Assembly: GCA_027491235.1 (NCBI GenBank) | Contig: JAIXWO010000022.1 | Span: 654,102 to 718,101, forward strand | Source of the DNA: Sphingomonadales bacterium | GTDB lineage: Bacteria > Pseudomonadota > Alphaproteobacteria > Sphingomonadales > Sphingomonadaceae | Length of the DNA: 64,000 bases | Reading direction: 5' to 3' | Shown: positions 33,557 to 39,764 of the stretch, piece after piece | Layout: every line of letters starts with the position of its first letter | Position numbering within the stretch: the stretch's first letter is position 1 | Notes under the pieces: model-generated | The model's input: the letters and a program-made list of their open reading frames with translations, nothing else | Database searches by the model: none | What the model was told of the DNA's origin: nothing | Translations under genes and position numbers: made by a program

Positions 33557-33895
33557 ATGCAGTTTCTCAAAACCATCTTCTGGGTCGTGATTGCGGTGGT
33601 CCTTGTTGCGTTTTCGATCAGCAACTGGACCAGCATTACCATTACGCTTTGGAGCGGATTGCTGCTGCAAACTTATCTGCCCCTGGTCATTGGCGCCGCC
33701 TTTCTCCTTGGATTTCTTCCCTATTATCTCCTTCACCAGGCGACCCGCTGGTCGCTGCACCGCAAATTGATGCAGGTAGAACGCCAATTGGCCGAGACAC
33801 GCGCTATGCTTGAGCCCAAGTCCGTCGAAACACCCGCGCCGGGAGCGATTCCCCCTTCCGCTGCACCAATTGCCGTGCCACCGGGGGTGTCATGA
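33557..33895 (+). CDS. LapA-like (lipopolysaccharide assembly protein A domain) small membrane protein
   Basis: Two hydrophobic helices, FSISNW, basic coiled tail; position before pyrF/trpF. Confidence 0.65.
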   Translation: MQFLKTIFWVVIAVVLVAFSISNWTSITITLWSGLLLQTYLPLVIGAAFLLGFLPYYLLHQATRWSLHRKLMQVERQLAETRAMLEPKSVETPAPGAIPPSAAPIAVPPGVS

Positions 33896-34566
33896 CCAGT
33901 CCTATCTATGTCGCCATCGACACCCCTGAACTCGAAAAGGCCCGCGACATCGTCGCGAAGGTCAAACACCATGTCGGCGGGATCAAGCTTGGCCTTGAAT
34001 TCTTCTCCGCCAACGGCCGCGCCGGTGTTCGGGAAATGGCACAGCTTGGCCTGCCGATTTTCCTCGATCTGAAACTGCATGACATTCCCAATACCGTCGG
34101 CAAGGCGGTGCAGGCCCTCGCTCCTTTGAAACCAGCCATACTTACGGTGCATGCCGCCGGTGGCCGCGCCATGATGGAAGACGCGAAGGCAGCAGCTCCG
34201 ACCGGCACAAAGGTCGTCGCCGTAACAGTGTTGACCAGCCTTGATGGCACCGATCTGCAGTCAATAGGCGTCAATGCCAGCCCGCATGACCAGGTGGAGC
34301 GCCTGACGCTGCTGGCCAAGGAATCTGGCCTCGACGGCGTCGTTTGTTCGGGCAATGAAGTCGCCGCCGCCCGCAAACTATGGCCCGGCGGTTTCTTCGT
34401 CGTGCCCGGCGTCCGACCCAATGATGGCAAGATCGGCGATCAGAAGCGTGTCGTGACACCGCGACAGGCGTTGGATAACGGGGCGTCAATTTTGGTCATT
34501 GGACGACCAATCACGCAGGCCGATGATCCGGACGCGGCAGCACGGGCCATCGACGCGACAATTTGA
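33892..34566 (+). CDS. pyrF: orotidine-5'-phosphate decarboxylase
   Basis: FLDLKLHDIPNTV, VTVLTS, VPGVRP, VIGRPIT. Confidence 0.97.
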   Translation: MTSPIYVAIDTPELEKARDIVAKVKHHVGGIKLGLEFFSANGRAGVREMAQLGLPIFLDLKLHDIPNTVGKAVQALAPLKPAILTVHAAGGRAMMEDAKAAAPTGTKVVAVTVLTSLDGTDLQSIGVNASPHDQVERLTLLAKESGLDGVVCSGNEVAAARKLWPGGFFVVPGVRPNDGKIGDQKRVVTPRQALDNGASILVIGRPITQADDPDAAARAIDATI

Positions 34567-34568
34567 TC

Positions 34569-34931
34569 ATGGCTGATCAAGCGACCCCCAATCTTCCTTC
34601 GCGCAGTTTTGACGCGACAGAAGCCTTTTATCTCCTACTCGGATTTGAACGGAGCTGGCGCGATGACGGCTGGATGATCCTTGGAAAGGGAAAGCTTTGC
34701 TTAGAATTCTTTCTGCTTCCTGATCTTCAGCCCGAAAATAGTACCTTTAGTTGCTGCCTACGCCTCGACGATCTTCCGAGCTTTGTGGCACAATGCCTTC
34801 AGGCGGGCATTCCCGACACGCGGAAAGGCTGGCCGCGCCTGCACCCAACCAAGCGTGATGCCAACGGACTGGACATCGCTTATCTAATCGATCCAGACGG
34901 CACGCTTCTGCGCCTGATACAGAACGACTAA
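34569..34931 (+). CDS. ble: bleomycin-binding/resistance protein (VOC fold), BleMBL-like
   Basis: MADQATPNLPSRSFDATEAFY, GWMIL, CCLRLDDL, GWPR, YLIDPDGTLLRLIQN match the bleomycin resistance protein family as I recall it. Confidence 0.85.
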   Translation: MADQATPNLPSRSFDATEAFYLLLGFERSWRDDGWMILGKGKLCLEFFLLPDLQPENSTFSCCLRLDDLPSFVAQCLQAGIPDTRKGWPRLHPTKRDANGLDIAYLIDPDGTLLRLIQND

Positions 34932-34934
34932 GCA

Positions 34935-35564
34935 ATGGCCATTCAAGTTAAAATCTGCGGCATCTCAACCGAAGAGACGCTTGATGCAGCGATCAGTGGC
35001 GGGGCGTCGCATATCGGCTTCAACTTCTTCGCCAAAAGCCCGCGCAGCGTGGCGCTGGAGCGGGCATCGGCACTTGTACAGCGGCTGCCAGATCATGTGA
35101 CCGCTGTTGGTCTGGTTGTGGATGAGGAGCGGGACCGCATTGACGCGATCCGCGCGCAGACCGGCATTCAAACCATTCAGCTTCACGGCGAAGAGAGCCC
35201 TGAATTCGCGGCGTCGCTCGGTGGTGACGTCTGGAAGGCCATTCCCGTTAAGACTCGGGATGATTTGGCTGCAGCGCACACCTTTGCAGGTGCCGTTAGC
35301 CACCTTCTCTATGATGCAAAGCCGCCCAAGGGCGCCGACCTTCCAGGTGGAACGGGCATGCGTTTTGATTGGTCGCTCCTCGATGGCTTTGCACATCCTT
35401 TGCCCTGGCTGCTGGCCGGGGGTCTTGATGCGGGCAATGTCGCAGAAGCGGCGGCCAGAACAGGTGCCCGTTTCATTGACGTTGCTTCGGGTGTTGAATC
35501 CGCACCGGGCATCAAGGATGTGGACAAGATCGCCGCATTCCTTAAAGCGACAGCCGACTTATGA
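34935..35564 (+). CDS. trpF: phosphoribosylanthranilate isomerase
   Basis: [38 protein letters not shown]. Confidence 0.96.
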
Positions 35565-36769
35565 CACTTATCAACTCCCTCCGTACGCAGCCCGACGACC
35601 GCGGGCATTTTGGCCAGTTTGGCGGACGTTATGTCGCCGAAACGCTGATGCCGCTCGTCCTCGATCTGGAAACGGAATATCGCAAGGCAAAGGCGGACCC
35701 CGCCTTTCACGCCGAGTTTGACGATCTGCTCGAACATTATGTCGGCAGGCCAAGCCCGCTTTATTTCGCCCCACGACTGACCGAAGAGCTGGGCGGTGCC
35801 CAAATCTGGTTCAAACGCGACGAGCTGAATCATACCGGTGCACACAAGATCAACAACTGCATCGGCCAGATCCTCCTCGCCATTCGCATGGGGAAGACGC
35901 GGATCATCGCGGAAACCGGAGCCGGCCAGCACGGCGTGGCGACGGCAACCGTCTGCGCCCGCTTTGGCCTGCCCTGCGTCGTCTATATGGGTGCGACCGA
36001 CGTTGCCCGTCAGGCGCCCAATGTGTTCCGCATGAAGCTGCTCGGCGCGGAAGTCGTGCCGGTCACCTCGGGTGCTGCAACACTCAAGGACGCCATGAAC
36101 GAGGCGCTGCGCGATTGGGTCGCGAATGTGGACGACACCTTTTACATCATCGGCACCGCCGCCGGTCCACACCCCTACCCCGAACTGGTCCGCGATTTTC
36201 AGAGCGTGATCGGCAAGGAAGCCCGTGCCCAGATGTTGTCGCGTGTCGGTCGCCTGCCAGACGTTCTCGTCGCGTCCATTGGTGGCGGTTCCAATTCGAT
36301 CGGACTGTTCCATCCCTTCCTTGATGATCCGTCGGTCAAGATGCTCGGTGTCGAAGCCGCAGGCCATGGGCTGGATAAGGAACATGCCGCCTCACTGGCG
36401 GGCGGTCGCCCCGGCATTCTGCACGGCAACAAGACATATTTGCTGCAGGATGAAGACGGCCAGATCATCGAAGGCCATTCGATATCCGCCGGCCTCGATT
36501 ATCCGGGCATTGGGCCGGAACATAGCTGGCTGAAGGAAATCGGCCGCGTCGATTATACCTCCGTCACCGATACCGAAGCGCTGGAAGGCTTCCAGCTGCT
36601 CTGCCGCACCGAAGGCATCATCCCCGCGCTTGAACCCGCGCACGCGATTGCAGCTGTCCGCAAACTCGCGCCGACGATGGACAAGGACCAGATCATCCTC
36701 GTCAACCTGTGCGGTCGCGGCGATAAGGACATCTTCTCCGTGGCGGAGCATCTTGGGGTGTCGCTTTAA
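35561..36769 (+). CDS. trpB: tryptophan synthase beta chain
   Basis: [40 protein letters not shown]. Confidence 0.98.
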
Positions 36770-37569
36770 TGTCGCGCTTCGCTTCCGCCTTTCGGCCCGA
36801 TCATTCCGCCCTCGTCTGCTTTGTCACGGGTGGCGATCCGACGCCGGATGCAACACCCGCCATCCTCGACGCCCTCGTTGAAGGCGGTGCAGATGTCGTC
36901 GAACTCGGCATGCCGTTCACGGACCCGATGGCGGATGGCCCGGCCATCCAGCGGGCCAACCTCCGCAGTCTTGGCGCGGGCACCAAGACAGCGGACATCT
37001 TCGCCATCGCCACCGGCTTTCGCGCTCGTCATCCCAACGTGCCGCTCGTCCTTATGGGCTATGCCAATCCGATGACGATCCGCGGCGCCGACTGGTTTGC
37101 CGCAGAATGCACCAAGGCCGGTGTGGACGGCGTCATCTGCGTCGACATTCCGCCGGAAGAAGACCCTGAACTTGGCCCCGCACTGCGAGCCGAAGGCATC
37201 TCGCTGATCCGCCTCGCCACGCCGACCACAGACGCAGCGCGGCTTCCGGCAGTTCTCGATGGCTCCTCGGGCTTTCTCTATTACGTCTCGGTCGCCGGGA
37301 TCACCGGATTGCAGCAGGCAGCACAGGCTTCCATCGAAGACGCCGTCGCCCGCCTGAAGGCCGCCACCAACATTCCCGTCGCGGTCGGATTTGGCGTCCG
37401 TACGCCGGAACAGGCCGCCGAAATCGCCAAGGTTGCCGATGGCGTGGTTGTTGGTTCCGCCATCATTGATATTGTCGCGACCGAAGGCGCTAATGCGCCC
37501 GCCAAAGTCCGCGACTTCGTCCGCTCGCTTCGTACAGCGATGGACCATGCCCGGGAGAAAACCGCATGA
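36769..37569 (+). CDS. trpA: tryptophan synthase alpha chain
   Basis: [39 protein letters not shown]. Confidence 0.97.
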
Positions 37570-38420
37570 ACTGGCTGACCCGCGTCCGCAATGCGATGCC
37601 CTTCATCGCCAAGCGCGAAACCGAGGGCAATCTTTGGAACAAGTGCCCGTCCTGCTCGCAGATGATCTTCATCAAGGAATATGAAGAGAATTTGTCGGTT
37701 TGCACCGTCTGCGGGCACCATGGCCGGATTGGGCCGCATGCGCGCTTCAGCCAGATTTTCGATGCGAACAGCTGGTCCATGTTGCCGAGCCCGCGGGCGC
37801 CCGAAGACCCGCTGAAGTTCCGCGATTCCAAAAAATATGTGGACCGCATCAAGGCTGCCCGTGCCGCCACTGGCGAGCATGACGCGCTGCTCAACGCCAA
37901 AGGCCGGATCGAAGGCCAGGGTGTTGTCGTTGGCGTGCAGGACTTTGCCTTCATGGGCGGCTCAATGGGCGTCGGCGTGGGTGAAGCGTTCATCGCAGGC
38001 GCCAAGGCCGCACTGGCTGACAAGGTGCCGTACATCATCTTCACCGCCGCCGGCGGCGCGCGGATGCAGGAAGGCATTTTGTCGCTGATGCAGATGCCCC
38101 GCACCACCGTTGCCATTGCGCAGCTGCGGGAAGCCGGCCTGCCCTATATCGTCGTCATGACGGACCCGACCACGGGCGGCGTCACGGCCAGCTATGCTAT
38201 GCTCGGCGATGTGCAGATGGCAGAACCAAATGCGCTGATCGGCTTTGCGGGACAGCGCGTCATTCAGGATACGATCCGGGAGAAACTCCCGGAAGGTTTC
38301 CAGCGCGCCGAGTATCTGCTTGATCACGGCATGCTCGATATGGTCGTCGAACGGAAAGACCTGCGCGAAACGCTCGCTCGTCTGATCAGCTATCTGATGC
38401 CGGAAAAGGCCGCGGCCTAA
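37566..38420 (+). CDS. accD: acetyl-CoA carboxylase carboxyltransferase beta subunit
   Basis: CPSC...CTVC zinc finger, [33 protein letters not shown]. Confidence 0.97.
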
Positions 38421-38426
38421 CCTTAA

Positions 38427-39764
38427 GTGGCAGATCACGCGCATTCCGATGACCCTGCGGTTCAGGCGCAGCTAGACCGTTTCGCCCAATTGTCACCCGG
38501 TCGTGACATTCTGGGGCTGGAGCGGATTGAGCGTCTGCTCGCCCTACTCGACAATCCACATCTCGACCTGCCGCCCGTCTTTCATGTCGCGGGCACCAAC
38601 GGCAAAGGCTCGACCTGCGCCTTCCTGCGCACTGCTCTTGAAGCCGGAGGCCGCCGGGTCCACGCTTATACCAGCCCACATCTTGTGCGCTTCAATGAAC
38701 GCATAAGAGTTGCCGGCAATCTGATTACAGATGAGGCTTTGGCGCCGCTCCTTGCCGAAGTGCTGGATGCCGCCGAAGCTGACGGAATGGCTCCGAGCTT
38801 CTTTGAAGCGACGACGGCGGCAGCGTTCCTGGCCTTTTCCCGCACAAAGGCGGATGTCGCGATCATTGAGGTTGGGCTTGGCGGACGGCTGGATGCGACC
38901 AACATTATCCCAAAGCCATTGATCTGCGGGATTGCACAGCTTGGCATCGACCACGAAGCATTTCTTCTGGACCCAGAGAATGGCCCAGACTTTGCGCCAC
39001 TGGAGCGGATTGGTTTTGAAAAAGCGGGCATCGCCAAGGCAAACGCACCGCTGGTGACGATGGCCTATCCGGAGACTGTCGCCGTTCGGATTGCAGATGT
39101 GGCAGCATCCATCGGCACCACAACGCTTGTCCAAGGGCAGGACTGGCATTGTCAACTGAAGGGCGACGCTCTCATTTACCGCGACGCCAAGGGTCCCTTG
39201 CGGCTTCCGCTGCCACACATGGCGGGGGATCATCAAGTCGCGAACGCTGGCCTTGCGATCGCCATGCTGCGGCATCAGGACCGAATTACCTTGCGTGACC
39301 ACGCCTTTACTGTTGCGATGGAGAAGACACAGTGGCCCGCGCGAATGCAACGTCTCACGTCAGGGCCATTTGTTGATCTCGTCAAGCCGGCCCAGTTGTG
39401 GCTCGACGGGGGTCATAATCCCAATGCAGCCGAAGCCATTGCCGCAACCTTCCTGCGCGGTCCTGCGCTAGACGTCATCATCGGCATGCTCGCCAACAAG
39501 GATGCAGCGGAGTTCCTCCGGATCATCGCCCCAGTGACCCGCAGCGTGACGGCGGTTCCAACCCCCGGGCATGACTGCCATGCGCCCGACGATTTGGCCG
39601 CGATGGCACAATCAGCGGGCATTGGAACGACTGCAACCGCGCCTGATGTTGAGAGCGCACTGCGACAGCTTAGCGCCCGAGGCGACGTGCGCCGTGTGGC
39701 CATCCTCGGCTCGCTCTATCTGGCGGGCGTCGTCCTGAAGGAAAACGGCCCGCTGCCGGACTAG
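38427..39764 (+). CDS. folC: bifunctional folylpolyglutamate/dihydrofolate synthase
   Basis: HVAGTNGKGS, YTSPHLVRFNERI, EVGLGGRLDATN, LDGGHNP, GSLYLAG. Confidence 0.96.
   Translation: MADHAHSDDPAVQAQLDRFAQLSPGRDILGLERIERLLALLDNPHLDLPPVFHVAGTNGKGSTCAFLRTALEAGGRRVHAYTSPHLVRFNERIRVAGNLITDEALAPLLAEVLDAAEADGMAPSFFEATTAAAFLAFSRTKADVAIIEVGLGGRLDATNIIPKPLICGIAQLGIDHEAFLLDPENGPDFAPLERIGFEKAGIAKANAPLVTMAYPETVAVRIADVAASIGTTTLVQGQDWHCQLKGDALIYRDAKGPLRLPLPHMAGDHQVANAGLAIAMLRHQDRITLRDHAFTVAMEKTQWPARMQRLTSGPFVDLVKPAQLWLDGGHNPNAAEAIAATFLRGPALDVIIGMLANKDAAEFLRIIAPVTRSVTAVPTPGHDCHAPDDLAAMAQSAGIGTTATAPDVESALRQLSARGDVRRVAILGSLYLAGVVLKENGPLPD

Follow-up and report, generated by a model that had tools for sequence, protein, structure and literature searches.

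The gene ble in the 64,000-nucleotide stretch of contig JAIXWO010000022.1 from a Sphingomonadales bacterium (the window, whose numbering is used throughout) is a new and unremarkable-looking member of the BLMT/Ble-MBL group, and it stands in a native operon between pyrF and trpF. The gap between these two housekeeping genes is a variable accessory slot across Sphingomonadales, and in several relatives it holds metallo-beta-lactamases (MBLs) similar to NDM. It is quite likely that the window carries a native BLMT/Ble-MBL-type gene in this slot, and that the mobile NDM and AFM modules, in which an MBL gene is followed by ble and trpF, were captured from the same slot elsewhere. Judged from its sequence, the window locus is best regarded as a distant, MBL-free version of the slot, and neither as the donor nor as a near relative of the donor. 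Its value is that of a pointer to a slot found throughout Sphingomonadales; the donor is not pinpointed by it.

The pyrF-trpF slot and its metallo-beta-lactamases

The loci were obtained from four genome scans with the window Ble, the Tn125 TrpF, an alignment of NDM and sphingomonad MBLs, and an alignment of BleMBL-type proteins as queries, and PyrF, MBL, Ble, TrpF, and TrpB were mapped onto the fetched loci. The presence of pyrF upstream of trpF was almost universal in Sphingomonadales, and the distance between the two genes varied. The window matched the frame lapA-pyrF-trpF-trpB-trpA-accD with 0-2.5 kb of variable content between pyrF and trpF, which was seen in at least 86 loci. In this query-driven sample, the content of the slot was as follows.

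Empty (11-88 nt): 15 of 86 loci
ble only (window included): 9 of 86 loci
MBL only: 10 of 86 loci
ble then MBL: 3 of 86 loci
MBL then ble: 1 of 86 loci
Other genes, mainly SIMPL/DUF541, GNAT acetyltransferases, and secreted hypothetical proteins: 48 of 86 loci

Furthermore, nine additional slot ble loci were obtained in the last scan, performed with the BleMBL-type query, and all of them were from Sphingomonadales. Neither pyrF nor trpF was found near ble in 59 non-sphingomonad ble loci. The commonest other occupants were a periplasmic SIMPL/DUF541 protein and GNAT acetyltransferases (L080 6184-6951, L077 5555-6328, L122 6269-6784, and L129 6504-7001), and SIMPL was also located 5' of ble-MBL in the Parerythrobacter-type loci.

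All of the fetched MBLs with 48-58% identity to NDM were located between pyrF and trpF. The hosts were Pontixanthobacter spp., Parerythrobacter aurantius, Alteripontixanthobacter, Pseudopontixanthobacter, and Blastomonas marina, in addition to several metagenome-assembled genomes (MAGs) and metagenome contigs. The MBLs of Hyphococcus and Kordiimonas, with 38-42% identity to NDM, lay outside the slot. The slot MBLs were lipoprotein-type enzymes of subclass B1, and those inspected possessed a lipobox as NDM does (LASC and LSAC versus LSGC). Moreover, NDM and AFM nested within the clade of the slot MBLs (bootstrap 82 against the outgroup). The original prediction on this DNA had expected relatives with an MBL between pyrF and ble; such a relative was found in Pontixanthobacter sp. 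CEM42, and all of the fetched MBLs with 48-58% identity to NDM occupied the corresponding position before ble or trpF. The slot would also mark out aquatic sphingomonads as a natural reservoir for bleomycin-binding proteins and MBLs of the lipoprotein B1 kind.

The order in Pontixanthobacter sp. CEM42 was pyrF, a hypothetical gene, the MBL gene (58% identity to NDM), ble, a gene on the opposite strand, and trpF, which was the closest match to the order of Tn125. Like the window, it had a chromosomal slot with ble (63% identity to the window Ble), and its MBL gene was separated from ble by 3 nt, as in Tn125; it differed from the window in the presence of the NDM-like lipoprotein MBL, in the order MBL-ble. 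The chromosomal slot of Parerythrobacter aurantius 1C24 also contained ble (68% identity to the window Ble) and differed from the window by an NDM-like lipoprotein MBL (55%) in the order ble-MBL. The Ble and TrpF of Parerythrobacter aurantius shared 76% and 70% identity with the Tn125 proteins, respectively, and were much nearer to them than those of the window.

ElBla2 from Erythrobacter litoralis HTCC2594, with 56% identity to NDM-1 (Jiang 2018, PMC5770381), was also situated in the slot, in the order purB-lapA-pyrF-elbla2-trpF-trpB-trpA-accD. Conservation of the elbla2 flanks in Erythrobacter genomes that lack the gene has been noted, and the text of that study does not mention trpF, ble, pyrF, or a parallel with the NDM context (Jiang 2018, PMC5770381). 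The elbla2 locus shared the chromosomal frame of the window. However, it had an MBL without ble, whereas the window had ble without an MBL, and its TrpF was of another type, with 45% identity to the window TrpF. A CdiI_2-type immunity-like gene was located between trpB and trpA of E. litoralis HTCC2594 (L192 6753-7082), which is a further small insertion in the trp array.

Origin of the NDM and AFM-1 modules

The progenitor of blaNDM has been described as undefined, and the idea of an Erythrobacter source has been set against a groEL-based proposal of a plant pathogen (PMC3179503, PMC3630922). The Erythrobacter proposal of 2011 relied on a single protein with 55% identity and was contested (PMC3179503, PMC3630922). 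Large MBL phylogenies group NDM with alpha- and deltaproteobacterial enzymes (PMC5637372, PMC13616975). No description of NDM together with pyrF-trpF synteny was found in the literature searched, which did not extend to subscription papers (Girlich 2012, Zheng 2011), and priority is possible; the literature naming Erythrobacter, trpF, and NDM together was not about synteny.

TrpF, a housekeeping passenger of the mobile module, was compared with its chromosomal relatives. Among 5.8 billion proteins, which were also searched for the other protein matches given below, the nearest non-plasmid relatives of the Tn125 TrpF were from Novosphingobium, Croceicoccus, and Altericroceibacterium (70-76% identity), and all chromosomal matches in the genome scan belonged to Sphingomonadales. 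In the neighbour-joining tree, the Tn125 TrpF nested in a large Novosphingobium/Erythrobacteraceae clade. It therefore fell inside Sphingomonadales, and a branching outside this order had been named beforehand as the outcome that would speak against the original prediction. Pontixanthobacter, Sphingopyxis, and Blastomonas formed a third group in the tree (bootstrap 98), and the window TrpF formed a separate long branch outside the clade that holds the Tn125 TrpF. The TrpF proteins could be assigned to a type A (Novosphingobium, Croceicoccus, Parerythrobacter, and Tn125/AFM) and a type B (Pontixanthobacter, E. litoralis, Blastomonas, and Sphingopyxis), with the window TrpF as a third type.

The TrpF types were deeply divergent and discordant with the flanking genes (L192 4800-5429, L161 5815-6435, L014 6934-7557, and window 34935-35564). 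For instance, E. litoralis HTCC2594 and Parerythrobacter aurantius shared 88% identity in PyrF and 93% in TrpB, compared with 48% in TrpF. The disagreement of the TrpF types with the PyrF and TrpB flanks suggests that trpF may have been swapped together with the slot. If trpF is indeed an exchangeable part of the slot, this would account for a tryptophan gene being carried along with a carbapenemase.

The NDM and AFM-1 modules (L072 5880-7553 and L075 3317-4990, respectively) were aligned without gaps over 1674 bp, with 85.7% nucleotide identity. The synonymous divergence (dS) was 0.56-0.70 and the ratio of nonsynonymous to synonymous divergence (dN/dS) was 0.03-0.11 in all three genes, and the spacer between MBL and ble was identical. 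The two modules have the appearance of orthologous loci from two donors and not of variants generated on plasmids, and the gap-free collinearity, the dS and dN/dS values, and the shared spacer together argue that MBL-ble-trpF was already the native order in two related donors. The blaAFM-1-bleMBL-trpF module (PMC8075316) is a second mobile copy of the MBL-ble-trpF string, indicating that the adjacency of ble and trpF predates mobilisation. Unlike the window locus, it is mobile and flanked by ISCR, with trpF truncated at the ISCR junction, and it was as distant from the window as Tn125. The Comamonas-type arrangement, with blaAFM-1 followed by ble and trpF, was as published (PMC8075316). In addition, the G+C content of the mobile module was 61-66%, which was in keeping with the high-GC sphingomonads.

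At the right end, Tn125 continues 10 bp past the trpF stop codon with a convergent open reading frame (ORF) for a DsbD_N/GH109 fusion, followed by cutA. Neither the fusion nor cutA was found beside trpF in the sphingomonad trp loci, and since these Tn125 genes have no counterpart there, the capture junction is placed right at the end of trpF. No trpB fragment was found 3' of trpF in Tn125, and no pyrF fragment was found upstream of AFM-1. The ORF of Tn125 commonly labelled 'tat' or dsbD (L072 7650-8681, - strand; L268 2001-3032) is itself a fusion of the Pfam domains DsbD_N and Glyco_hydro_109_C, that is, of a DsbD N-terminal domain and the C-terminal part of a GH109/oxidoreductase-like protein, and 10 bp separate its 3' end from trpF. 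The ble-trpF junction of Tn125, TGA CCGC ATGCCCGCGAAAATCAAGAT (L072 6990-7015), resembles that of Altererythrobacter/Pelagerythrobacter, TGA CCGCCG ATGCCCAAAATCAAGAT (L142 ~6988, L092 ~6982).

The mobile MBL-ble-trpF segments of blaNDM (Tn125) and blaAFM-1 would have been lifted out of the pyrF-trpF slot, with the left breakpoint within the MBL gene or shortly 5' of it and the right breakpoint no more than about 10 bp past the stop codon of trpF. As donors, two related sphingomonads that have yet to be sampled, with a TrpF of the Novosphingobium/Erythrobacteraceae type, are proposed. It is moderately likely that the blaNDM and blaAFM modules originally resided in the slot in this full sense: two congeneric donors with type-A TrpF and the order pyrF-MBL-ble-trpF-trpB, from which ISCR or ISAba125 captured MBL-ble-trpF twice, with trpF exchangeable together with the slot and the window as an MBL-free member. 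A sphingomonad origin of the NDM-ble-trpF module is supported by the synteny and by the TrpF and MBL phylogenies. Three independent markers (the MBL, ble, and the passenger trpF) converge on one chromosomal slot in one order, and NDM and AFM-1 would sample two orthologous versions of it. The origin of blaNDM thus becomes a bounded search, namely for sphingomonads with a type-A TrpF and pyrF-MBL-ble-trpF-trpB at >90% identity.

It might also be that the adjacency of ble and trpF in the window is coincidental and that a non-sphingomonad was the source of the module, for example a member of Brevundimonas/Caulobacterales or Xanthomonadaceae. In an earlier study, the best ble match was Brevundimonas, with 64% identity, and Pseudoxanthomonas was favoured on the basis of groES/groEL (Sekizuka et al. 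2011, PMC3179503). In the present searches, the Bles of Brevundimonas alba and of a Caulobacteraceae MAG reached 74% and 73% identity to BleMBL, respectively, compared with 61% for the window Ble, and the window TrpF shared only 51% identity with that of Tn125. However, pyrF, trpF, or an MBL was near none of at least 59 non-sphingomonad ble loci, TrpF was closest to that of Novosphingobium/Erythrobacteraceae, and the NDM-like MBLs of at least 48% identity all adjoined trpF in Sphingomonadales. Moreover, groES/EL, cutA, and the DsbD fusion lie past the junction after trpF and have no counterpart in the sphingomonad trp loci, and therefore they can have a separate source. A non-sphingomonad origin is thus considered quite improbable compared with capture from the sphingomonad slot.

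Several results weigh against the capture of the modules from this slot. The exact chromosomal MBL-ble-trpF string was not found in the sequenced genomes; in Pontixanthobacter sp. CEM42 a further gene separates ble from trpF, and in the lineages whose Ble is closest, ble precedes the MBL gene. No natural match exceeded 76% for TrpF, 76% for Ble, or 58% for the MBL among the 5.8 billion proteins, and nothing natural lay between 58% and 86% identity to NDM. Bles from unrelated contexts were up to 73-74% identical to BleMBL (the Brevundimonas alba and Caulobacteraceae proteins named above). The locus sampling was driven by the chosen queries, and the slot counts are not population frequencies. 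The trees were neighbour-joining trees, that of TrpF being built without non-sphingomonad outgroups, and the Ble tree (119 columns) joined the slot Bles to BleMBL with a bootstrap of only 17%. The Ble phylogeny was kept out of the argument because the protein is too short to resolve it (bootstrap 17-50% at the key nodes).

Some apparent intermediates were rejected. The NDM-like proteins with 66-90% identity on ENA contigs of about 1-2.5 kb came from barcoded, noisy single-molecule contigs and were not natural relatives; among them, the 66-74% NDM-like proteins of the barcode-named contigs L187 and L188 (ENA ERZ15225022) were error-rich and were not natural intermediates. The NDM gene with 94% amino acid identity in the assemblies of Halioglobus japonicus BC5_1 and Zhongshania aliphaticivorans BC9_2A (L155 and L156, contigs of 1.2 kb) was cloning-vector or mutant-library contamination, with ambiguous bases and flanked by a pUC-type bla promoter and a pMB1 origin. 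The TrpF with 85% identity (P0008) came from a trpF with an internal deletion in a usual NDM setting, and the MBL with 86% identity on a Comamonas scaffold was AFM-1 itself (100% identity to AFM-1), followed by ble and trpF.

The Ble protein of the window

The window Ble shared 61.3% identity with BleMBL over 119 amino acids without internal gaps. The reference BleMBL was taken from an IncX3 NDM-7 plasmid, and BleMBL is encoded on about 2,000 NDM plasmids. The seven peptide blocks that the original prediction had named as shared with BleMBL (TPNLPSR, TEAFY, GWMIL, CCLRLDDL, GWPR, YLIDPD, and RLIQN) were all present in both proteins. Residues 1-120 also aligned without gaps to residues 1-120 of BLMT from Tn5 (PDB 1ECS), with 60% identity and an E value of 1.5e-41, and 59 of 120 positions were invariant across the window Ble, BleMBL, and BLMT. 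The isoelectric point (pI) of the window Ble was 4.72 (17 D + E versus 12 K + R), and that of BleMBL and BLMT was 4.62 each. Proteins of the BLMT/Ble-MBL type, of about 120-126 amino acids, are acidic and align end to end as a single domain, and the window Ble showed both properties.

BleMBL (NF012202), encoded 3' of blaNDM in Tn125, was of the same length class as the window Ble (121 and 120 amino acids, respectively), and its gene likewise shares its strand with trpF, which follows directly after a spacer of 4 nt in Tn125 and 3 nt in the window. The window ble differed in being preceded by pyrF instead of an MBL gene and in being chromosomal, without mobile linkage. The structure of BLMT (Tn5; PDB 1ECS, 1EWJ, and 1MH6) was solved with and without bleomycin (PDB 1ECS, 1EWJ), and its N-terminal arm is nearly identical to that of the window Ble; its gene is part of the neo-ble-str operon of Tn5, whereas the window ble is in a pyrF/trp context.

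The top NCBIfam models were BLMT (157.1 bits) and Ble-MBL (153.7 bits). Since both scores lay under the curated cut-offs (210 for NF000005 BLMT and 250 for NF012202 Ble-MBL), which belong to allele-level 'exception' models, the window Ble is classed as a relative of BLMT and Ble-MBL that falls outside both families in their NCBI definition. These scores count against the assignment, as does the lack of a Pfam match to the VOC superfamily (PF00903) even at E<=10. BleMBL itself reached 19.5 bits with PF00903 (cut-off 20.6), and the model appears to be insensitive to the BLMT/Ble-MBL branch; the fold of the window Ble is predicted from BLMT.

Because of the 60% full-length identity to the crystallised BLMT of Tn5, the window Ble is most likely a dimeric sequesterer of glycopeptides of the bleomycin family. 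The predicted dimer would bind bleomycin, phleomycin, and zeocin one-to-one and would sequester the drug before DNA is cut. It might also be that the protein has the same fold and is not a bleomycin binder, with another natural product as its ligand or with a DNA-protective, fitness, or housekeeping role. Drug-independent effects on fitness or mutation rate have been reported for Tn5 ble and bleMBL. The scores under the NCBIfam cut-offs and the missing Pfam match would agree with such a role; furthermore, a constitutive operon position is atypical of a resistance gene, and co-transcription with the pyrF and trp genes could reflect a housekeeping role. However, the gap-free identity of 60-61% was to two proteins for which bleomycin binding or resistance has been demonstrated, and the N-terminal arm MxDQATPNLPSR, the 59 invariant positions, and the acidic pI were all kept. 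A role other than sequestration of bleomycin-type drugs is thus considered unlikely.

The original prediction had seen the novelty of the window in the closeness of its genes to the mobile ones, and this part was not borne out. The window Ble (61%) was surpassed by more than 120 protein clusters that were nearer to BleMBL, and BLMT was equally close to it (60%). The window TrpF shared 51.5% identity with the Tn125 TrpF. The best natural match of BleMBL was the Ble from Parerythrobacter aurantius (76%), and the closest natural Bles (73-76%) were located in pyrF-SIMPL-ble-MBL-trpF loci. In addition, BleMBL homologues with 62-74% identity occurred in unrelated contexts in Brevundimonas, Caulobacter, Devosia, Burkholderia, and even actinobacteria. 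Owing to this wide spread of equal or nearer Bles, sequence identity alone says nothing special about the window copy. Compared with what would be expected of a progenitor locus, the window had ble directly upstream of trpF with a spacer of a few nucleotides and chromosomal synteny without mobile elements; it had neither a B1 MBL directly upstream of ble nor near-identity to the mobile genes. The overall reading of the original prediction thus held for a native version of the locus type from which ble-trpF came, and failed for a close copy of the mobile genes (Ble 61%, TrpF 51%).

The window locus and its inheritance

The genes lapA-pyrF-ble-trpF-trpB-trpA-accD-folC formed a tightly packed, co-directional array on the + strand, as seen from the ORF listing and Pfam. 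They were as follows.

33557..33895, +: lapA-like gene for a small membrane protein (Pfam LapA_dom, E 2.1e-5, under the gathering score)
33892..34566, +: pyrF, orotidine 5'-phosphate decarboxylase, the left border of the slot (Pfam OMPdecase, E 1.6e-55)
34569..34931, +: ble, 120 amino acids, BLMT/Ble-MBL type (61.3% to BleMBL, 60% to Tn5 BLMT)
34935..35564, +: trpF, phosphoribosylanthranilate isomerase, the right border of the slot (Pfam PRAI, E 1.5e-41)
35561..36769, +: trpB (Pfam PALP)
36769..37569, +: trpA (Pfam Trp_syntA, E 7e-86)
37566..38420, +: accD (Pfam Carboxyl_trans and Zn_ribbon_ACC)
38427..39764, +: folC-like gene, the last of the co-directional array (Pfam Mur_ligase_C)

The lapA-like gene overlapped the start of pyrF by 4 nt, and lapA homologues were the conserved left neighbours of pyrF in the related Sphingomonadales loci. 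The pyrF/ble junction was TGA-TC-ATG, with 2 nt between the genes, and the ble/trpF junction was TAA-GCA-ATG, with 3 nt between them, which was in agreement with the spacers and the order described in the original prediction; trpF and trpB overlapped by 4 nt (ATGA). The start codon of ble was ATG, with an in-frame TTG at 34563. ble was the sole occupant of the slot in the window genome, and no NDM-like gene was detected in the whole 64 kb (tblastn, E<=1e-5), so that ble indeed stood there without a beta-lactamase, and the locus corresponds in position to the ble-trpF portion of the NDM module. No promoter-like or terminator-like sites were found on the + strand between pyrF and trpB. Because of the 2-nt and 3-nt spacers and the lack of such signals, ble is probably read through from the promoter of pyrF. 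When RNA evidence of co-transcription was sought, the window sequence was matched in DNA metagenome runs only. A patatin-like gene, a Crp-type regulator, and radA were located 5' of the array, and a transporter of the major facilitator superfamily was located on its 3' side.

A 12.4-kb region was collinear with a Chakrabartia sp. MAG (Sphingomonadaceae) at 90.3% nucleotide identity, and a second Sphingomonadales MAG showed 84% nucleotide identity to the region. Compared with the Chakrabartia MAG, PyrF was 97% identical in amino acid sequence (dN/dS 0.025) and TrpB was 100% identical. The dN/dS of ble was 0.12-0.14 against the two related MAGs, and that of trpF was similar (0.11). These ble values indicate that ble is a vertically inherited gene under purifying selection in the Chakrabartia-like lineage. 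No insertion sequence (IS) elements or mobile genes were found in the window, and neither meaningful Rfam families nor flanking repeats were found around ble. The housekeeping flanks, the lack of IS elements and flanking repeats, and the collinearity with the Chakrabartia MAG (90%) support the earlier claim of a native, non-mobile locus.

The base composition of ble was lower in G+C than that of its neighbours. The G+C counts per 60-nt line were 24 at 34681 and 32 at 34621 and 34741 in ble, and up to 41 in trpB, and this recount agreed with the hand counts of 24, 32, and 41 in the original prediction. Over the whole window, the mean was 35.4 (standard deviation 3.7) and the 1st percentile was 26, and the line with 24 fell under it. 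The G+C content of ble was 53.7% (55% at third codon positions) versus 59.1% for the window, which corresponded to the 5th percentile of 363-bp segments. The hint of an inserted gene that had been drawn from these counts was mildly favoured by the low G+C content and by the presence and absence of ble across the order; within this lineage, however, the gene was inherited vertically (dN/dS 0.12).

The low G+C content of ble and the patchy slot content across the order could also be explained by a reverse flow, in which sphingomonads acquired ble and the MBL from Tn125-related elements inserted near trpF. However, IS, ISCR, integrase, and terminal repeats were absent from the window and the inspected loci, and ble was vertically inherited within the Chakrabartia group. 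Furthermore, the mobile module carries a housekeeping trpF of sphingomonad type, which is the signature of a chromosomal capture, and a recent spread would have left far shallower divergences than those of 42-52% (MBL) and 24-39% (Ble). Such a reverse flow is thus hardly credible compared with capture out of the slot.

More than 20 metagenome runs from freshwater, riverine, and aquatic sources contained a sequence identical or nearly identical to window positions 33557-36769. The recurrence in freshwater and riverine metagenomes indicates that the host is a widespread freshwater planktonic sphingomonad.

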